Source: Raja brachyura (lineage: Eukaryota). Taken from it: DNA of 64,000 nucleotides. The notes under the pieces were generated by a model that did no database searches, had not been told where the DNA came from, and saw only the letters and a list, made by a program, of their open reading frames with translations. Both the position numbers and the translations under genes were made by a program. Shown here one piece after another: positions 9,447 to 29,082 of the stretch. The DNA is taken from contig OY740811.1 in the NCBI GenBank assembly GCA_963514005.1, forward strand, positions 18,104,001-18,168,000. The letters are read 5' to 3'. Numbering within the stretch: position 1 is the first letter of the stretch; each line of letters starts with the position of its first letter.

Positions 9447-9587
9447 CCCCATGTGGAAGGCCCGACTTGTGACACTTGTAAACGTGGCCACTTCTACCTG
9501 AGCACGGAGAACAGAGAGGGGTGCCTGCCATGTTTCTGCATGGGAGTGACCCAGCATTGCAGCAGCTCCCCCTACTACAGGAAACTG
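9447..9587 (+). CDS. HSPG2: Perlecan exon (PHVEGPTCDTCKRGHFYLSTENREGCLPCFCMGVTQHCSSSPYYRKL)
   Basis: ttccag acceptor, gtaggt donor, phase 0/0. The GCLPCFCMG motif is typical of perlecan domain III. Confidence 0.95.
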
Positions 9588-12144: not shown

Positions 12145-12339
12145 GTCGCCAGTCCATTTGTTCCACCAAATAACTTCCAGAACTTCTCCCTGGTGAGCCG
12201 CCAGCGCACGACGCACATCACCTCCGGATTCACGGTGACGGTGAGAGAAGGCCAGCCGCAGCTCTCCTTCGGGCGCTTTGGGCAGTACACGCAGGAGTCC
12301 TACTACTGGCAGCTTCCGGAAGTCTTTCAAGGGGATAAG
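12145..12339 (+). CDS. HSPG2: Perlecan exon, start of third laminin IV module (VASPFVPPNNFQNFSLV...ESYYWQLPEVFQGDK)
   Basis: ctgcag acceptor, AAG|gtaagg donor, 195 nt, phase 0/0, YWQLP..QGDK motif. Confidence 0.95.
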
Positions 12340-14819: not shown

Positions 14820-14858
14820 CGGGAGGAATTCTTTGCTCGCATTAGACGTGGGCACAAG
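14820..14858 (+). CDS. HSPG2: Candidate cassette micro-exon (REEFFARIRRGHK)
   Basis: Strong acceptor ttctgtccctttctgcag, donor AAG|gtagag, 39 nt, open, phase 0/0 like the host intron. No transcript evidence. Confidence 0.5.
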
Positions 14859-15360
14859 GTAGAGTGATGCCGTCTCCGTGCTTTGATGGTTGTGTTTGCT
14901 TGAGTTTGTCCCTGCACTGATGACTTTAGCGTTAATAATGCCGTGTTTTTTGGAACATAACCGAGGTGGAATTGGATCTAAACATCCAGTGTCATGGGCC
15001 AGAGTACCTTTGTGAGCATGTGGTGTGTGTCTTTCTATTGTGCCCAAGTGCTGTGCAAAGATCTGGTGCTGCTAACGACCTGTTGGCTCTGATTAGGAGA
15101 GCGGACTGCATGCCAGTAATCTCCAGGTGGTTGTCAGACACACACAGGCACCTAGTGAAAGGAAAGGGCGATGAGCTAGAAATTTACATTTCCCCCAAGG
15201 AGAAAGCCCACATTTTCTCAAGCAGGGAAAGCAATGGTTGAAGGCATTGCACTACGATGAAAAGTTTATATTATGAGAACCAATTGACAATTTAATGAAT
15301 TACCTCCCCAATGATCTGTGGCCACCACCAGTTTACATTCTTACCACCTGCATGGCACTT

Positions 15361-15808
15361 GGGCGGCTTGGTGGCGCAGCGGTAGAGTTGCTGCCTTACA
15401 GCGTCAGAGAACCAGGTTCGATCCTGACTACGGGTGCTGTCTGCACGGAGTTTGTACATTCTCCCCGTGACCTGAAGAAGGGTGTCGACCCGAAACGTCG
15501 CCTATCTCCTTCGCTCCTTAGATGCTGCTGCACCCGCTGAGTTTCTCCAGCTTTTTGTGTAACCCTCGATTCTCCAGCATCTGCAGTTCCTTCTTTAACT
15601 CCCCGTGACCTTGTGGGTTTTCCCCGGGTGCTCTGGTTTCCTCCCACATTCCACACATGTACAGGTCAATTGACTTGGGTAAAAATTGTAAATTGTCCCG
15701 AGTGTGCAAGATAGAGATAGTGCATCGGAACCGCTAGTCAGCACGGACTCGGTGACCTGAAGGGCCTATTTCCACTATATCTATAAACTAAACGAAACTA
15801 AACTAAAA
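15361..15808 (+). mobile_element. tRNA-derived V-SINE (HE1-like) with nested Penelope-derived insertion
   Basis: tRNA-like head (TGGCGCAGCGG, GGTTCGATCC), V-core GGTTTCCTCCCACA, CR1-like tail with (AAACT)n. Nested insert at ~15474-15598. Confidence 0.85.
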
Positions 15809-16439
15809 CACCTTGGCTTTCTATTGTGATAGTGAAGTAAAACCCTTTCTTCCTGTTTTATTTTTTGATTGCCTTCTCTGCTATCCATTTTAATACTTTT
15901 AACAGCACCTATTTCCCAATTGCATTCGTTATTTAGTTGAAGCGTAAAACATCATCACTTGCTTTCCTTCCCCTTTACTCCGCGCTGCTATTGTCCACTG
16001 ATCACATTACCAGCTGGAGTAAATCTGGAGCTCAAAGGTCCTTCCTGACCAGTCGGAAGCTGGGATTTAAAATAGATCAGCACATGGACTAAACCCGAGC
16101 AGGCTGGAGTATCGCTTCTCAGCACATAAATATTGTCTGATTATCCAATGACATCTCCAAGTGAGAAGTTAGTGCAGCATACATTCCCAATATCTAAATT
16201 ATTTACACACTTTTCCCCAGCAACTCTTGTAGACTTTTCCTGGTGCTTGGGAACGGTACACTGGTGCCCCTCAACGAACACAGTTAATTTGATAGCTGAC
16301 ACCTGTATAAACTTTTAATGTTGCAAAGTGCACCAATTGTCCAGAAGAACATCAGCATTATATTTTGAGATGAGGTCACAAAATGAACTGTGACCAAAGG
16401 ATTAAGGCTCAAGGTAAAAGAGGAGAATGCGAAAAAGCA

Positions 16440-16870
16440 ACTTATAACCATATAACAATTACAGCATGGAAACAGGCCTTCTCGGCCCTTCCAGTCCGTG
16501 CCAACCATTTATTTTCCCCTAGTCCCATCTACCTGCACTCAGACCATACCCCTCCATTCCCTTCCCGTCCATATACCTATCCACTTTACTTTTAAATGTT
16601 AAAATCGATCCTGCCTCCACCACTTCTGCTGGAAGATCATTCCACACAGCCACCACTCTCTGAGTAAAGAAGTTCCCCCTCATGTTACCCCTAAACTTCT
16701 GTCCCTTAATTCTCATGTCATGCCCTCTTGCTTGAATCTTCCCTACCCTCAATGGGAAAAGCTTATCCACGTCAACTCTGTCTATCCCTTTCATCATTTT
16801 AAAGACCTCAATCAAATCCCCCCTTAACCTTCTGCGCTCCAAAGAATAAAGACCCAACTTGTTCAACCTT
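16440..16870 (-). mobile_element. CR1 LINE 3' fragment
   Basis: ERLNKLGLYSLERRRLRGDLIEVFK..FFTQRVVAVWNDLP. Confidence 0.9.
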
Positions 16871-17560
16871 TCGAGGAACTTCATGAGGAAACTTTCCATG
16901 AGCATGCTAATTATCAGACTTTCACTGATACTTGATCATCAGTCATTCATGAATATATTTGGAAAGATAGCGATAATTATGTTATTCCTCCTTAATACTA
17001 ATTGGAGGTCAGGTTCTCATAGACTCTGGAAATGTAATCTATCGAAATCATAGCCTGTTGTGTCTGTTGATGTGCAGCATGCTTTGAAAGACTATGTGTG
17101 ATGGATCATATTAAATTAAACCTGCTGTCTTGTTGAGCTACAGCTGGATCCCCTTTTGTAGTCTGGCTGACTATAAAACAATGGCCAGGTTGCATTTTCT
17201 GAGACTCAGCTTGCCAACGTTGCTGTTCTTGAATGCACATGTTTTTGGCGATGTTTTATTTGACTCACAAGCAACCGGCAGAGCAGAAAAGGACACAAAG
17301 TCCTGGAGTAACTCAGCGGGTCAGGCAGCATCACTGGAGAATATGGTCGGGACCCTTCTTTGGAGTCCGAAGAAGGGTCCTGACCCAAAATGTCACCTAT
17401 CCACGTTCTCCAGAGATGTTGCCTGGCCCACTGAGTTACTCCAGCACTTTATGTCCTTTTTTTAATAAACCAGCATCTGCACTTCCTTGTGTCTACTAGT
17501 TGCTGAGCGGAATGGTGGTTTTGTGGTTACTAAATAACATGCAGAATTACATTTTAATAG

Positions 17561-17662
17561 AAGGACCCATCTTTAACTGAGGAGCAACTGAGAAAGGATG
17601 CCGCCATCTGGGAACTCTTGAGCTCCTCTTCGTCGCATTCTAGGCTTAAAAGATCTTCAAAG
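17561..17662 (+). CDS. HSPG2: Candidate cassette exon (KDPSLTEEQLRKDAAIWELLSSSSSHSRLKRSSK)
   Basis: attttaatag acceptor, AAG|gtagca donor, 102 nt, open, phase 0/0. Shares a motif with the 20479 candidate; TGCATG at 17676. Confidence 0.55.
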
Positions 17663-18729
17663 GTAGCAGTAAAACTGCATGAGGAAGTCTGAAGCTTAAT
17701 TATTACTGACCGAACGTGGAGCAAGCAATATGCAAAGGAAATCTAACACCCTCCTTCATATCTGTCTAATCAGATTATTTTGTTATTTCCAAAACTGAGC
17801 TTTATTTGTTCTCCATTAGTTCTCTTGTCTTAAGTGTGGGAAACCAAGAAACAATATGTTCAGTTCACTGTATAAGATGGTGTGAGCTAACATTGCACAT
17901 AAGCTGTAAGTGGAGCATGTGAATTACTTGTTAACGAGGATCTGGTATTAATTTCTCAAGGACTTGATGAACCATGTATCCCACATACAAATCATAGGTT
18001 GTGGTCAAGCATTCTTCCACTCTAACACATGTTTTTATAAGGGCAAAACTGCTTTAACTTGGCATTTTTCTGGACATTATATTTTCCTTTAACACTATAG
18101 TTTACGAATAGGAATAAATTTGAGATTCTCGCACTCAATGGAAATGCTTCAACGGGTGACCATGAGAAAGGGTGTGATTCTGAAATTCGCAGTTGTGAAT
18201 AAATACAGTAAAACTCAAATAATAATGGTAAGGGCATCAAATAATAGTAAGGCTGGCAAATGGGGAAAAAAGGCAAGAGAATGGGTTGCGAGGGCCAAAT
18301 GACCAGCCACGATCAAATGGTGAAGCAGACTTGATGGGCCGAATGGCTTAATTCTGCTCCTTTGTCTGAAGATCTTATGACCTAATCGCTATCAGCTGTT
18401 TGACACTTTGATCAGAAACAGGGCCCCGACCCAAAAGGTTGTCTGTCCATTCCCTCCACAGATGCTGCCTGGCCCGCTGGGTTCCTCCAACACTTTGTTT
18501 CTATCTTGTGATTCCAGCATCTGCAGTTTCTGGTGTCCCAGTCTGACGCCCAACAGATTCGGCTTGGGCTCACCTGGTTCCCTTTACTCACCCACACCTC
18601 TATTTCAGAGCACCGTTTAAATTCATTGCGGACGCTGTTTCCACGCCTTTCTAAACTCACCAGGCCCTGTTCCAATATTCCTTTTACGCACACACTGGAA
18701 AATGTAACATGCTCCTCTGTAGCGTTCAT

Positions 18730-19692
18730 AAATTCACAAGTTGTAGGAGTAGAATTAGGCCATTTGGCCCCTCGAGTCTACTCCGCCATTCAATCATGGC
18801 TGATGTCTGCCACCTAATACCATTTTCCTGCCTTCTCCCCATAACCATTGACATCCGTGCTAATCAAGAATTTGTCTATCTCTGTCTTAAAACTATCCAC
18901 TGACTTGGATCATTGACCCTCTGTGGCAATGAGTTCCACAGATTAACTACCCTCTGACTAAAGAAGTTCCTCCTCACCTCCTTTCTAAAAGAGCATCCTT
19001 TAATTCTGAGGCTAAGACCTCTGGTCCTAGACTCTCCCACCAGTGGAAACATCCTTTCCACATCCACTCAATCTAGGCCTTTCATTATTCTGTAAGTTTC
19101 AATGAGGTCCCCCCTTAACCTTCTAAACTCCAGCGTGTAGAGGCCCAGTGCTGTCAAGTGCTCATCATGCTAACCCACTCATTCCTGGAACATTCTTGTA
19201 AACCTCCTCTGTATCCTCTCCAGAGCCAGCACATCCTTCCTCAGGTATGGGGCAATATATTCTCACAGTACTCCAAATGTGGCCTGACCAGAGCCTTATT
19301 GAGCCTCAACATTACATCTCTGTTTTTGTATTCCAGTCCTCTTGATATAAATGCTAGCATTGAATTTGCCTTCCTTACTACCAATGCAACTTCCAAATTA
19401 ACTTTTTGGGAGTCCTGCACCAGCACTCCCAAGTTTCTTTGCACCTTCGATTTATGGATTATCTCTCCATTTATATAATCTATGCCTTTATTCTTATTAC
19501 CAAAAAGCATGACTCTGCACTTTGCTATACTGAATTTCAACTGCCATTTCTCTGCCCACTCTCCTAACCTGTCCAAGTCTTTCTGCATTGTCCTTGCTTC
19601 CTCTACACTGCCTGCCCCCCCACCTATCTTAGCATCAACTGCAAACTTGGCCACAAAGCCTTCTATCCCCTTATCCAAATCATTAATATACA
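18730..19692 (-). mobile_element. CR1 LINE RT fragment (~1 kb)
   Basis: YINDLD..AKFA.D.KIGG..QKDLDRLGEWAEKWQ..ALVRPHLEYC and FFSQRVVNLWNSLP. Confidence 0.92.
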
Positions 19693-20029
19693 AATAAAAA
19701 TAAAAAGCAAATGAAGCACCCATCACATTCCATCATCTGTAGCCTCTTATGGGCTCCACTGAGCATTTCCCAGCCTCTGTCGCTACTTCCACCCCTCCCT
19801 CCCTCACCTGGGACTTCATCTGCCAGTGAACCTCTCCTCACCAAAATCCACCAGTCATTTGCCTTCTCCACCTCCATCACCTGGCTCCCTCCACTCCTTC
19901 AACCTAGATGCAGGGTCCTGACCTGAACCATCGACTGTCCATTTCCTCCACAGATGCTGCCTGACCCACCGAGTTCCTCCAGCAATTTAATGTTCAGCAT
20001 CTGCAGTCTCTTGTGTCTCCAAATGAACA

Positions 20030-20270
20030 ATGAATTGGTGTATCAATGGGAAGCCACAAAGACAGATGTGTACAGCAATTCGTTCTTTCCACGCACTATT
20101 AAAGCATGGAATAATCTCCACCAAGCCACGGTTGCCCAGCCAGATGCAACTAAATTTAAAGTGGCACTTTCTTCCCAATAACCCTCTCTGGCTAAACCCC
20201 TCCCTTCACCACCTCCAGTTTAAATTCCAGTTGGAATATTTTGGAGGACCAAGTAACCAAGAACCAAGGC
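20030..20270 (+). mobile_element. 3' end of a distinct non-LTR retrotransposon subfamily
   Basis: YSNSFFPRTIKAWNNL RT C-terminal motif, a stop codon, then a short ACCAAG-repeat tail. Confidence 0.55.
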
Positions 20271-20478
20271 AGCGGGTGCCGGATCATCAGTTTTACTGTT
20301 TTATTATTCACAAAACAGAGAAGCTTCTTTCTTCAAAAGAAAAATAAAATGTAAAGATTTGTGAAGAATCTGCATGGTTATTCTCTTATTGCCAGTGTTG
20401 TGATTTGCCGTGAGTGCCGTGGTAAACTGCAGGGATGATGACTTGTTATGGATGACTTGTCCCTTCACTTCCTTGTAG

Positions 20479-20778
20479 TCTGTGCCTGATATGGAAGAGC
20501 AGAAGCGTATTGACGATGAAGTATGGGCAATTATAACGGGTTTTGCTGCTGAGCGGTTGCACAAACCACACAGTCCTGTCGTGTCCAGCGGTAAAAATCA
20601 GTCCCGGTCATCGCGCCCCTTTTCTCGCCTGGCGTCAGCTGGACCTGCCGGGCCTCCTGCTCCCTCTGCCTCTCGCAAAAGTTCAGCTCATTCCGTATCC
20701 TCCCCCTCTTCAAGAACTGCCTCTTCCCATTCTTCTCTCTCCCCATCTCTGCTTTCTCAACCTGCCGACCACAAAAAG
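20479..20778 (+). CDS. HSPG2: Candidate cassette exon, Ser/Pro-rich 100 aa (SVPDMEEQKRIDDEVWAIITGF...SLLSQPADHKK)
   Basis: cccttcacttccttgtag acceptor, AAG|gtatgg donor, exactly 300 nt, open, phase 0/0, no recognisable repeat. Overlaps ORF 20482..20823. Confidence 0.65.
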
Positions 20779-21134
20779 GTATGGAACTTTTTGCATTATG
20801 AAAAGTGTAAATCACCCCTTTAAGTACAGTCCTTGCATTCTACACAAAGTGTGTCGGAAGGAACTGCATGCAGATGCTGGTTTAATAGACACAAAAAGCT
20901 GGAGTAACTCAGCGGAACAGGTCGCATCTCTGGAGAGAAGGAATGGGTGACTCTTCGGGTCGAGACCCTTCTTCAGATATTCGAGACCACTCTTTTGGTG
21001 GAGGGTGGAACAAAACTATGCATCACAATGCAAGCTAAGATAAAGAATGCCTTTGATGAGGATCAGTGGAGTAAATGGTTAAGGTTAGCCAAAGATAGTA
21101 ACAAGTCTAACATTGTAAAAATTGTATATTAAAT

Positions 21135-21572
21135 GGTCTGATTAGGTTAACATATGAGGAGCGTTTGATGGCTCTGGGCCTGTACTTGCTGGAGTTTAGA
21201 AAGATGAGGGGTGGATCCCATTGAAACCTACCGAATAATGAAAGGTCTAGTGGATGTGAAGAAGATGTTTCCAATAATGGGAGAGTCTAGCACCAGAGTG
21301 CTACTGCCTCAGAATAAGAAGACTTGCCTTTCAAATGGGAACGAGGAGGAATTTACTTAGCCAGAGGGTGGTGAATCTGTGAAACTCATTGCCACAGTCA
21401 TTTGGTTTTCTAAAGCAAAGATTGGTAGGTTCTTGATTAATAAGGGCGTCAAAGGTTATGGGGGAAAAGGCAGGAGACTGGAGTTGAGGGGGAAAAATAG
21501 GCCAGCCTCGATCAAATGGCAGAGCAGACTCGATGGAATGAATGCCTAATTCTGCTCCTATGTCTTATGGTC
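21135..21572 (+). mobile_element. CR1 LINE 3' fragment
   Basis: GAGGAGCGTTTGATGGCTCTGGGCCTGTAC..CAGAGGGTGGTGAATCTGTG..AATTCTGCTCCTATGTCTTATGG. Confidence 0.85.
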
Positions 21573-22226
21573 TGATGGCAAACGGGCCACAGGTGCCTTC
21601 AAGAGATTGGTGCATCATGTCAGAGTCGAGACCTGGGGAGAAGCATCAGGTGAACACAGAAATGAATTTGCGATCAGTCCCTGTGGAGAGAAGTGAGGAG
21701 GTGTTTGGCGTACGACTCATTGGGGGCAGTTGCAGAGAAGCCCAGTGTAGTACTGAGACAGTCCCCCACAAAGTGTAGTGTTTAGGTGCCGTGAGTAGAA
21801 AAAATATTAAATTGCTCCTCAACTCTTTGCGCAACATTAAGTGCAGATAGGAACTCCTCAGCTGATGGTAGGCTTGAGTTGCTTTCTTTGGAGCATTGAA
21901 GACTGATTGAGGAATTCGGAGTTATGAGGGACATTGTTGGAGTGGAGAGTAGAGGTGTCCTTGAACATTGGACATTGAGGAAGAATGTTTTCCCCCAGAC
22001 AGTGTTTGGAAGCTGCAACTGTCAGTTTTAGTTTAGTTTATTGAGTATGTGGAGGAGGCGGGTACTCTGACAAAGTTTAAGCAGTGTTGAGATGACCGCA
22101 TGAAACTCCATACCAAGTGCTCATCACCCTCTGAGTTACACCAGCACTTTGTGTCCCTCTTTGTAAAACAGTATCTGCAGTTCCTTGTTTCTACTCTCTT
22201 TTCTAAGTTGTTGATTTTCCATGCAG

Positions 22227-22316
22227 ATGAAACACTTCTCTAAGATCCCCTCACTACAAGCCGAGGAATCAGCAAATCTTATTGCTTCCTCCGTGTGGGG
22301 CCCAAGACCGGAGAAG
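22227..22316 (+). CDS. HSPG2: Candidate cassette exon (MKHFSKIPSLQAEESANLIASSVWGPRPEK)
   Basis: ttgattttccatgcag acceptor, AAG|gtagcc donor, 90 nt, open, phase 0/0. TGCATG at 22332 and 22360. Confidence 0.55.
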
Positions 22317-22679
22317 GTAGCCACGGTTAGCTGCATGGAAAGTCTCAATCTATGTGACCTGCATGTCTATGGTGTTATGGTCTTCAGAAGGCTGGCTGAT
22401 AGAATATGTTAGAAGTACTCAGCAGGTCAGGCATCGTCCGTGGAGAGAGAAAGAGCCTTAATATTTTAGCGTGACTACGGTTCATTGAGCTGAAATGTTA
22501 GTGTTATTTCCATCGCCGTAAACCTGCTGAATATTTATCCAGATTGTGTTTCCCAGTTCAGTGTTTTGCTTTTTACCAGCCGGCTGCCTATTGAATTACA
22601 AACTGCAAACCTGCGAGCGGTATTATTCCTGTTTAGCAGAAGCCACTGCTTCGAATGCTTACAAAACCCGCCACATGCA

Positions 22680-22976
22680 TGTGGTAGGTGCAGTGATAGA
22701 GCTGCTGCCTCACAGCGCCAGAGACCTGGGTTCGATCCTGACCTCGGGTGCTGTCCGTTTGGAATTTGCACGTTCTCCCTGTGACCATGTGGGTTTTATC
22801 CGGGTGCTCCCACATCTAAAAGACGTGCGGGTTTGCAGTTTAATTGGCCTCTATAAATTACCCTTGGTGTGAAAAAGTGGGATAATATAAAGCTAATATG
22901 AATGGGCGATGATGGTCAGTGTGGACTGAAGGGCCTCATTCCACGCTGTATCCATTAATCAATCAATCAATCAATT
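22680..22976 (+). mobile_element. V-SINE with (TCAA)n tail
   Basis: B box GGTTCGATCC and V-core. Similar + strand copies at ~14131-14430, 32140-32425, 39140-39425, 40775-41047 and 42878-43086. Confidence 0.8.
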
Positions 22977-25291
22977 CAATGCACTGGGCCATCATTATAA
23001 ACATTCAACAAAGCAAATAGTTTGTGTGCAATATTGTAATAACTGAGGCCCAAAAAGGTGGCCCATTCTGTTTGTGATTTTAGCATGGATCTACATTCCC
23101 TAATGAGGAGCATGTTTATTTGATTGATTTTCTTTGTTAGAATTTATATTTTGTGTGGCTTTGCTGTGGATTGGCCCAGACATATGTGTTTAAACTTGCT
23201 AGCGGATATCATTTGCAAATTGTATACGACTGTCCTTATTAACCATTGAGCAGAGGTGACCCCCTCCAGAGGGGACACTTGTACTCCTTGGATCTTTAGA
23301 TTTCGTTTAGTTTTAGGTTTATGATTATTATTATCACATGTACCGAGGTACAATGAAAAGCTTTGTTTTGCGTGCAATCCAAACAGATCAGATATGCCAT
23401 ACATAGACACAATCAAGTCAAACTCAAATAATACAGATGGAGCAATGGGGACGAAACAGAGTGCAGAATATATATCTCGGCGTTGAAGCACATCAATTCC
23501 ATAGACAAACTCTGATATGTTCAATGGGTAGAGGTGAATCAGTCAATACCCTAGCGCAATATATCAGCCTCTTCCTGACTTTTCATCGGAAGTAATTTGG
23601 GTTGTTGTGTATGTCCACTGTAACCTGGTGGATTGATGTTGTTGGCCACTATTTCTAACGGCTGCTATGACAACACTGGGTGTAAGTGAACCATTGGCAA
23701 TATTAAAGGCCTGCATCGGTATGATGATACATTTGATTGGCGGGTGGGTAATTAATTAATTAATTGGATGCGGGGTCGAAAGATTATCAGAGTGATAGTG
23801 AGAGGAGCCAAGAAATGTAACTGTATTTCCCCAACACTGGTTGATAAAACACCCCATTTTGGAGCCTAACAAGCCCACAAGATCTACATGCACTCATGCC
23901 CCTTCTATTGAAAGTGCACTGCCAGAACCCTGCCGACCACCTGCCACGTTTGTACCAGATTCCTACTATTGGAACAACCAGTTAACTATCTTGATTTAAG
24001 TTTCTATCTCTTCCAAATGGAGACTAACCCTGGTTCTAAACATCAACAAAAAAAACACACAAAGTGTTGGAGTAACTCAGCGAGTCAGGCAGCTTCTCTG
24101 GAGAACATGAACATGAATAGGTGATGTTTCAGGTCAGGACCCTTCTTCCTCACCTATCCAAGTTATCCAGAGGTGCTGCCTGATCATTTGAGTTGCTCCA
24201 GCACTCTGTAACTTTTCTTGCAAAACGTAATCTGCAGTTCCTTGCATCTCTGGTTTTAAACATGGCTGAAAGGCTATTTTATGTCCCCAGTTCATCCAGC
24301 CATTTCCCCGATTCATAAAATAGAAGGGAGATCCTTTACACACCCGTTGGGGATTAAACAAGATTGCATGTATTCTGATTTGTAACACACACACACTGGT
24401 AGCAATGTTCCCTCTTCAGGTTAATTTTTACAGCAGAACAAGTGGCATTGATTAGAGTAATCTGAGAAGTTGCAGATCGCGGGGACATGGAGAATGAATT
24501 GGGGAAATAAAGTCACGTTCCAGACATGTTTAAAACCAGGGCTGGTTTCCATCTAGAGTATAAGAAATATTTTCTCTCTTTAGTCCACCACTTCCCATTG
24601 TAAAAGCGTGTTCGCAGCTCATTTTTAATCTGGAGTACGCTTAGATTCTTGTAGTCATTGTTTGCAAAATAAAATGATTTTTCAGAAAGATAAATTCCAG
24701 AATAAAATCGAAGTCCTGTCTGGTCTTCTCGACCTGCATCTTCAACTCTTAAGACTTTCTGTTTGTTGGATATGCATTCCGTCTCTGGTGTATAGAAGTT
24801 CGAGCAACTTGCATCTCTTAATAGTTCGGCTTAGTGTCACTCAAGTTTGTAAATCGGATTCTGCGTGTGGTCTGCACTCAGCTGACCATGTTAATGAGGT
24901 GAAATAGCAATGATTCAGCTAATAGGAGAGGAGGAGATGGAAATAGTCTTGAGGCCAGAAACTCAATGGGAAGGAAAGCAGCCAATATTTCAAGGGGTTA
25001 ACTTTTCATCGGAGCTAAGAATGCGCAATTAAACAAATCTCATGCCTGTCTGTGTGCACCTTTTTTTTGCATAACCTTGTAAACAAAAACGCAGTACTTC
25101 TAATTCACAGTTACAGTTTAAGTTTTGAAACAAAGTCCAGCTCTCTTGTTAAAAAAGTGTCATGTTAACAACACAGCTGTGCTCAATTTATCAACAGGAA
25201 ATGAGGGATGGATACTTGGGGGGGGGGGGGGGGGGGGAACGACTCTGCTTTGTGCAATCCTAGGGTCAGAATTTGAGCCGTTTTGCTGACC

Positions 25292-25444
25292 ATGGCGTTG
25301 CTTGCTGTTCTGTGTAAACTTTCTCTGTTCATCTTGTCTCTGCCTCTTTCTCTGTCCCAGTATGCTCTGCTTTACAAGGGCTTCAGCCTCCTGCCTGAAA
25401 ACAATTTCTATTGGCGACTTCCACATCAGTACCTGGGCAACAAG
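25292..25444 (+). CDS. HSPG2: Candidate alternative exon: signal-peptide first exon (ATG 25292) or internal exon 25361-25444 (YALLYKGFSLLPENNFYWRLPHQYLGNK)
   Basis: Paralogous to the end of exon 12145-12339 (FYWRLPHQYLGNK vs YYWQLPEVFQGDK). AAG|gtaacc phase-0 donor, ACCATGG Kozak context, polypyrimidine tract plus cag ending at 25360. Confidence 0.75.
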
Positions 25445-26552
25445 GTAACCAATAGATTCCGGTAGCGTCTTAGAAAGCCTTTGTTTCGCGCATTTGACTT
25501 TTCGTGCCAATTGGATTGAGTGATGTCTTCATCTAATTTATCATGATTGTGCCTTTGCGTCCGTACCTTTCAACTGGTTGAAATATCCTCAGTGGTGGGG
25601 GGGGGGGGGGAACGCGTCAAAGAGTTGGAATAATGCACTTCTTTTTGTTAGCCAATATTCGCAGTTCCTCGTTTCTACACTACGTATTACACTAATCCTC
25701 AACGGCAACAAGTTTCATGGCGATTCAAACTGATAACACAATCAGGAATAACTCGCTGTTTGAAGAAGGGTCTCGACCTGAAACTGAAACTGTCTGACCC
25801 GTTGAGTTCCTGTAGCTTTTTGTGTCTATATGTCACCATCTTGAGCAACTGGTGCAATTCTCCATATTACACTGGTATTGTCAGTAGAATAACGTGATGG
25901 AAGCTCCCCATGGCTGATGCCAGTCTGTGGTGAGCTACTGTTAATATCTTCCTCTGCAAGCAAGCTTTGGATGTTGATATGAAATGTCAGGAAGTCTTTT
26001 GAAAGATCCCACAGCTAGTGTTTACCTGCCATCCTTCCACTTCCAGCTTCAAACAGCGAATCAAGGAACATCTTCATTCAGTGGCAGCAACAGTTGGTAG
26101 AAAATGCCAGGCTGGCTCCCAACCCTGGCATTCCCCCATTGTTCCACTTCCCTAGACCCACGCTCCGTTCCCGAGAGCTGCACTCCATTCCCGAGAACCA
26201 CGCTCTGTTCCACAGTTACTGACCAACCAGCCCCTGAGCTAACCAAGCTATGTGCAGTGCCATGGTAGTTAATAAAAGCAGGGAATGCATTATTCAGAAA
26301 ATTTAAGTTTCTGAAAAGTACAAATTGAATCTACAATATATAAATGTATATTCAACAGCTCAAAATGTACCTTGTATAAATATCAGCTAACTATAAAATA
26401 GCTCACAATGTTTTTGCAGTTCTCTACCTTGGCAGCGCACCCAAGTGTTGACTGAACGGTGTACCGGTGAGACGAGTTCTCTTGCAATGCCGATGATCCT
26501 GTTGTAACGAGGGTGTGAAGCAACCTGGTAACTGGTCTGTCCTTTCCCTCAG

Positions 26553-26645
26553 GTGACATCCTACGGCGGACGCCTTCGTTACACGCTCTCCTACGACTCG
26601 GGGTTCCGGGGAACTGCAGTACCAGATGCGGATGTCCAGATCATT
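26553..26645 (+). CDS. HSPG2: Perlecan exon, Laminin_B (VTSYGGRLRYTLSYDSGFRGTAVPDADVQII)
   Basis: ccctcag acceptor, gtacgt donor, phase 0/0, SYGG.LRY motif. Confidence 0.95.
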
Positions 26646-28815: not shown

Positions 28816-28851
28816 GCCCAGTGCTGACCATGGATCTCCTCTCCCACACAG

Positions 28852-29082
28852 CAACTTTGGATGCGTCCAGATGGACAGCCGGCCACCAGGGAGCATCTGC
28901 TGATGGTCCTCGCTGACCTGGATGAAGTCCTCATCCGGGCCACCTACTCGACTGACATGATCTCTGCCAGCCTCTCTGACGTGAGCATGGAGATCGCAGT
29001 GCCCTTCTACACCAGCCTGGGCCAGGCACTGGAGGTGGAGGAATGCCATTGCCCGCAGGGCTACCATGGCTTGTCTTGTCAG
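28852..29082 (+). CDS. HSPG2: Perlecan exon (QLWMRPDGQPATREHLLMVLADLDEVLIRAT...VEECHCPQGYHGLSCQ)
   Basis: Near-identical to the perlecan motif RPDGQPATREHLLM.LADLDE.LIRAT. cacacag acceptor, CAG|gtgact donor. Confidence 0.97.

Follow-up and report, generated by a model that had tools for sequence, protein, structure and literature searches.

Perlecan (HSPG2) has a central place in basement membranes, cartilage and neuromuscular junctions, and mutations in its gene are found in Schwartz-Jampel syndrome and dyssegmental dysplasia. The locus described here comes from the skate Raja brachyura (assembly GCA_963514005.1, contig OY740811.1, positions 18,104,001 to 18,168,000 of the forward strand), a stretch of 64,000 nucleotides (nt) hereafter called the window, in which a 14.2-kb intron inside the third laminin IV type A module of perlecan (L4-3) carries five small in-frame exons, numbered 1 to 5 (Table 1). 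The conserved jawed-vertebrate exon block that they form is probably a splicing-gated switch for furin or a related convertase (PCSK), set in an L4 domain that is predicted to stay folded. Optional exons carrying a cleavage site are known from KIT ligand (exon 6) and ERBB4 (JM-a/JM-b), in which juxtamembrane shedding frees the ectodomain, whereas the perlecan motifs are of the furin type and lie in a secreted folded domain, whose chains would remain tethered. In the perlecan genes unc-52 of C. elegans and trol of Drosophila, the splicing events gain or lose whole modules, unlike the vertebrate block, which is an insert within L4.

Splicing of unc-52 and trol is likewise regulated according to the accessible part of a 2018 review, in which the only human HSPG2 splice variants given are miniperl and the mast-cell short forms, products of the same gene that differ from the block in position (PMC6266596). 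The accessible parts of two other studies describe a rat Hspg2 exon of approximately 51 nt that is activated by RBPMS, RBFOX2 and MBNL, so RBFOX2 has already been shown to act on the gene that holds the block (PMC6613909, PMC10570038). The rat exon lies elsewhere, since its forward primer corresponds to a motif at residue 182 (domain I) and the insert starts at rat residue 1407. Agrin, like perlecan a basement-membrane heparan sulfate proteoglycan, has its activity set by in-frame exons within a folded domain; in the accessible part of the source these are the y/z inserts, which measure 8, 11 and 19 residues and belong to the terminal LG domain; matrix metalloproteinase processing is also mentioned there, and furin once (PMC4859157). 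The agrin inserts are short receptor-binding loops, whereas the whole perlecan block has 137-254 amino acids (aa), convertase motifs and a predicted strand replacement. No published description of the block was found in the literature searched, a coverage outside which most subscription journals fall, and the word furin is absent from the accessible parts of PMC6266596 and PMC9010944. RefSeq perlecan isoforms of thorny skate (XP_032903835.1), frog (XP_069802948.1) and rat (XP_063143844.1) have the same exons and junctions but are automated, with no functional description, and the names returned for them omit the motifs and the spare strand described below. The exons are known to annotation pipelines, while their function is apparently undescribed.

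That the five segments are real exons is practically certain. The insert of the thorny-skate RefSeq isoform X4 (P0112, XP_032903835.1) consists of the five exons in order, with the same junctions and 199 of 205 residues identical (13/13, 34/34, 96/100, 28/30 and 28/28 for exons 1 to 5, all gapless). As originally predicted, each segment has an AG acceptor, a GT donor, an open phase-0 frame and a final AAG codon, and the lengths (39+102+300+90+84) add up to 615 nt, or 205 aa. Their alternative splicing, also part of the original prediction, is very probable, as both forms of L4-3 occur in one species, the thorny skate (six included and two skipped among eight models retrieved); with canonical sites, a frame that is kept, and included and skipped forms in the same species, the exons are cassette exons at the level of gene models. 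The array had also been called hidden, and human perlecan had been taken to lack such an insert. RefSeq predicted isoforms already include the exons, however, and among mammals a version of 137-163 aa is present in opossum, bats, pig, carnivores, rodents and loris. The block is neither skate-specific nor new to annotation databases.

The taxonomic spread was obtained in two steps. HMMER, queried with the upstream exon, gave 57 proteins, among them one frog RefSeq isoform with a 190-residue insert at the GDK/V junction; the region of the frog insert, used as query, returned 858 proteins, of which the best 120 of 858 were used, plus sister isoforms from their clusters. From 278 proteins parsed, 268 were anchored and 10 were dropped for weak anchors. 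The L4-3 insert is present in 203/268 vertebrate perlecan models and skipped in 65/268, a ratio that is uninformative since the query contained the insert and retrieval therefore favours insert-bearing proteins. Insert-bearing fishes include chimaera, sharks, rays, bichir, gar, paddlefish, teleosts and coelacanth, and insert-bearing tetrapods include amphibians, squamates, turtles, ostrich, opossum and placental mammals. The exon frames are open in every sampled lineage. Six likely non-vertebrate perlecan-like representatives, with one model each, show no insert at this junction, their status resting on the name in one of the six and on divergence in the remaining five. Among isoforms with identical L4-3 inserts (P0058-P0071, P0193-P0203), total lengths vary by anything from a few residues to several hundred, pointing to other alternative regions elsewhere in vertebrate perlecan.

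The furin/PCSK consensus is R-X-[K/R]-R, found in the 4,721-residue skate protein only as the R-I-R-R of exon 1 (site 1) and the R-L-K-R of exon 2 (site 2). Across 119 distinct inserts the density of the motif is 8.5 per 1,000 aa, compared with 0.058 for these proteins outside the insert; it was found in 105 of the 114 inserts longer than exon 5 alone, and 162 motifs were observed against 17±4 (maximum 33) across 1,000 shuffles, with rows that are related and not independent. The site columns were aligned over 95 rows, approximately one per species with some close kin or sister isoforms, and 12 single-site teleost rows were placed under site 2. Lys occurs at P4 or P1 in none of the 95 rows in either column and at P2 in 6 rows of the site 1 column and 36 of the site 2 column, while P3 of site 2 is occupied by 14 different residues, so that this site keeps P4, P2 and P1 amid freely varying surroundings. 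The absence of Lys from P1 and P4, its frequency at P2 and the freedom of P3 argue for furin-like specificity rather than a basic patch. Strong forms of both sites occur in 7/7 cartilaginous fish, 3/3 non-teleost ray-finned fish, the coelacanth and 20/20 amphibian rows; with Arg strictly at P1 and P4 they belong to the furin/PCSK consensus, site 2 being degenerate in mammals. The P1' residues in the window, Gly and Ser, are neither Pro nor bulky aliphatic. The P1' column of site 1 holds Ala in 73 rows, Gly in 7, Glu in 2 and Lys in 1, and that of site 2 holds Leu in 14, Val in 3 and Pro in 1 of the 95 rows, Leu mainly in mammals. Site 2 falls within a stretch modelled at a predicted local distance difference test score (pLDDT) below 50 and is likely disordered.

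Two further observations concern site 1. The rows with Trp in place of Arg at P1 come from loris, otter and three squirrels (P0151, P0157, P0163, P0312, P0318), which suggests that the site was lost several times independently among mammals; as to the cause, a CpG transition is a guess. An N-glycosylation sequon lies at the start of exon 2, 4-5 residues past the site, in 10/10 tetrapod and 0/5 fish rows checked, and in tetrapods it could modulate cleavage.

The preceding YWxLP…GxK strand of the L4 fold recurs in exon 5. An ungapped alignment pairs this exon with the final 28 residues of the exon upstream (8 identities), and its own final 12 residues correspond to positions 1-12 of the Laminin_B profile (PF00052; E=0.19, weak alone), contiguous with positions 13-43 in the next exon, after which positions 75-136 follow. 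Its mean top-residue frequency is 0.74, compared with 0.72-0.77 for constitutive exons. An AlphaFold2 model of the insert form, modest in quality (mean pLDDT 61, predicted template modelling score 0.49, 44 rows), matches 9I5A/9I5B (E ~1e-18) and 4YEP/4YEQ, solved L4 structures of perlecan and laminin; in it the first YWQLP copy (69-82) is mostly below pLDDT 50, and exon-5 residues 274-289 reach approximately 70-80, with a strand at 277-280. In the model of a skipped shark isoform, the original YWQLP copy has pLDDT 79-94. Exon 5 follows an intact upstream exon in the mRNA models, and replacement is predicted in the fold only. The original prediction of a linker splitting the L4 fold is at odds with these results, since exon 5 duplicates a strand of L4 and convertase-type motifs are found in exons 1-2. 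The tails of L4-1, L4-2 and L4-3 resemble exon 5 to about the same degree (scores 50, 62 and 50), and the L4-3 tail outscored the L4-2 tail as the match of exon 5 in just 29/92 rows; the L4-1 and L4-2 equivalents have no separate 84-nt exon and no exon-5 copy in the corresponding introns.

Mutually exclusive use of exon 5 and the upstream tail was considered and rejected, with 0/65 skip models ending in an exon-5-like tail. An internal phase-0 donor at 12240/12241 (ACG/GTGAGA) that would enable such exclusion is likewise unsupported (0/65 skip models). The constitutive exon has two in-frame ACG/GTGA donor-like sites within 12235-12246 of the window (GT at 12235 and 12241), used by none of the models examined.

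In annotation, the exons behave mostly as a unit. Among 56 cartilaginous-fish models, 23 skip all five exons, 30 carry the whole block, two lack one exon, and one, from chimaera, is shorter in the exon 3-4 part. Exon 5 terminates 202 of the 203 inserts, and this near-obligatory use is less exposed to the retrieval bias than the ratio of included to skipped forms. TGCATG is an RBFOX element. It occurs within 200 nt downstream four times for the five exons, against one for 17 and three for 24 constitutive exons, an enrichment (Poisson p ~0.001) counted in this genome alone, with the 200-nt limit set after the data were seen. Judged from the placement of these elements, inclusion of the block is likely promoted by RBFOX.

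A mechanism in five steps can be proposed. The block is mostly whole or skipped in annotation, and its inclusion would be promoted by RBFOX in muscle, heart or neurons. Exon 5 is then predicted to give the fold its YWxLP...GxK segment, displacing the original copy, so that the insert would exit the domain from a loop with the GDK/VxxYGG motif unbroken. A secretory-pathway convertase would cut after R-I-R-R and R-L-K-R, freeing the intervening 34-residue peptide, and the cut at site 2 would leave a new N-terminus just ahead of the D-x-x-[IV]-W helix of exon 3. The product would be a nicked two-chain perlecan and not free halves, as L4 lies between LE cysteines that are present in the window, and both chains would contribute strands to a shared beta-sandwich. 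By the usual LE disulfide pattern, the first Cys of the 28849..29082 exon presumably pairs with a Cys upstream of L4, in the exon ending at 9587. In a last and weakly predicted step, the exon-3 helix may dock on L4/LE, masking or creating a binding surface of domain III. The fuller proposal, that jawed vertebrates make a second form of perlecan, a proprotein with tissue-specific furin sites and a replacement strand, yielding a nicked two-chain product, a freed, conserved 34-residue peptide and a tethered D-x-x-[IV]-W helix that regulates domain III binding, with the spare-strand exon as a general device for insertion in mid-domain, is put forward tentatively, at slightly less than even chances. 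If it is true, the block gives vertebrate perlecan a built-in processed isoform, probably tissue-restricted; if human carries the exons, variants there would score as intronic against the canonical transcript. For protein evolution, too, a duplicated strand that admits a large insert into a folded domain is of interest.

Besides the retrieval bias and the modest insert-form model, several observations weigh against a furin/PCSK switch in a folded L4 domain. The isoform combinations come from automated gene models and not from junction reads, some cartilaginous-fish genomes list skipped models only (5/5, 4/4 and 3/3 listed), and one draft frog model (P0073) has exon 2 without exon 5, the sole exception of 203. 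TGCATG is missing from the 200 nt after exons 1 and 5. In the insert-form model the first half of exon 5 (262-273) is unplaced, yet well conserved, and the LE cysteines were not confidently modelled in either the insert or the skipped run. A predicted helix (84-98, pLDDT ~57-65) contains site 1, and the flanks of this site are more conserved than a protease would require. Among 23 mammalian rows, a strong site 2 is found in none and a minimal RXXR in 12, often followed by Leu; a strong site 1 is found in only 17, with Trp at P1 in five; and four (loris and three squirrels) keep the exons with no RXXR anywhere in the insert.

These last four rows would suit a cleavage-independent binding module, in which L4 or a partner protein is contacted by the helices of exons 1-3, with arginines that take part in this contact or bind heparan sulfate, a reading considered unlikely. 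The conservation of exon 1 beyond P4-P1 speaks for it, as does the exon-3 helix, in which Asp and Trp are invariant in all ungapped rows (90 and 92 of 95, respectively). The skate exon-3 helix modelled with the skipped L4/LE module of a shark gave a complex score of 0.54 against 0.03 for the best control, with contact agreement of at least 84% and partner pLDDT of at least 67; this cross-species pair grades as weak support, since in a calibration without peptides the range up to 0.60 held 5 of 78 solved complexes and all four passing mismatches (of 180). A heparin-binding patch should, however, accept Lys anywhere, whereas here Lys is confined to P2; the constancy of P4, P2 and P1 of site 2 among varying neighbours and the near absence of R-X-[K/R]-R from the rest of perlecan also disagree with it. 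Binding is compatible with cleavage and may be a remnant function in some mammals. The stalk that follows the helix in exon 3 is variable (29% Ser, 12% Pro), and exon 4 is gapped in many rows (mean gap fraction 0.35). Pfam gave no significant match for exons 2-4, and the ESM Atlas no usable match for the exon-3 helix; among proteins of at most 2,000 aa, no homologue of exon 3 or of the upstream exon was found.

A linker that splits the L4 fold and is tuned in length and charge by freely combinatorial cassettes, close to the original prediction, is improbable. All exons are of phase 0-0, and their donors are weak as predicted, matching the consensus at +4/+5/+6 in 0, 0, 1, 0 and 1 positions compared with a mean of 1.9 for 15 constitutive donors (Mann-Whitney p=0.002; 15 of the 17 in the window, two being omitted as uncertain). 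Partial combinations do occur, chiefly in teleosts, turtles and some mammals, as judged by regular-expression exon classes that are rough and misclassify some rows, and exon 5 alone makes up the insert in 6/268 models. The free combination of exons stands to that extent, but cartilaginous-fish models are mostly none-or-all (whole block in 30 of 33 insert-bearing models) and exon 5 is near-obligatory; moreover, the conserved parts are motifs and not linker, and the prediction is of a fold completed rather than split. Least probable by far is the view that these genuine exons are seldom included or vestigial, the isoform models being annotation carry-over, for which genomes listing skipped models only and the decay of mammalian sites can be cited, but against which stand the open frames in every sampled lineage and the conservation of exons 1 and 5 from chimaera to mammals at the level of constitutive exons (top-residue frequency 0.74-0.75).

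The assignment of the locus to perlecan follows from tblastn, in which the exons of the skate protein P0112 tile the window plus 100 kb upstream in order (blocks retained at identity >80% and >75%), with the orthologous exon order LDLa - L4/LE - Ig. The module is an L4 domain (Laminin IV type A, Pfam Laminin_B) by its profile match and by a beta-sandwich fold within an LE module. The AAG/GT ending, which had been singled out as shared with the constitutive upstream exon, is seen in all five exons but is not special, as a phase-0 donor with consensus exonic AG forces Lys, Gln or Glu; the last codon of mammalian exon 1 encodes Gln and not Lys.

Table 1. Features of the L4-3 region of perlecan in the Raja brachyura window (positions counted from its first letter)
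Feature	Position	Strand	Length	Description
Constitutive first exon of L4-3	12145..12339	+	65 aa	Aligns to perlecan structures 9I5A/9I5B
Original strand-helix-YWQLP...GDK segment	12256-12339	+	84 nt	Final part of the constitutive first exon
Alternative exon 1	14820..14858	+	39 nt, 13 aa	Furin-type site 1, R-I-R-R, at 14838-14849
Alternative exon 2	17561..17662	+	102 nt, 34 aa	Predicted helix, then furin-type site 2, R-L-K-R, at 17642-17653
TGCATG	17676..17681	+		14 nt after exon 2
Alternative exon 3	20479..20778	+	300 nt, 100 aa	Amphipathic D-x-x-[IV]-W helix (~20491-20553), then Ser/Pro/Ala-rich stalk
TGCATG	20865..20870	+		87 nt after exon 3
Alternative exon 4	22227..22316	+	90 nt, 30 aa	Stalk extension, poorly conserved
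Two TGCATG	22332..22365	+		16 and 44 nt after exon 4
Alternative exon 5	25361..25444	+	84 nt, 28 aa	Spare copy of the final 28 residues of an L4 first exon
Next constitutive exon (VTSYGG...)	26553..26645	+		L4-3 continued; holds Laminin_B positions 13-43
Constitutive closing exon	28849..29082	+		Closes L4-3; LE module resumes

The five exons are not chance segments: a crude scan of the 14.2-kb intron for candidate exons (pyrimidine tract/YAG...AG/GT[AG], open in frame) returned only six candidates, namely four of the five exons and two others; exon 2, which fails the pyrimidine filter, is the exon missed. The two other candidates (19134-19244 and 23300-23347) lie outside the skate insert and are probably due to chance. 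Poly-G runs are found on both sides of exon 5, at approximately 25218-25237 and 25596-25609, which we take to be possible hnRNP F/H elements. Exon 2 of fishes contains an EEQxRxDxxxW helix similar to the one in exon 3 (17561-17662 and 20479-20553), with a Trp that is lost in tetrapods. An origin of exon 2 by duplication from exon 3 is suggestive at most, with 138 of 5,000 shuffles reaching the score.

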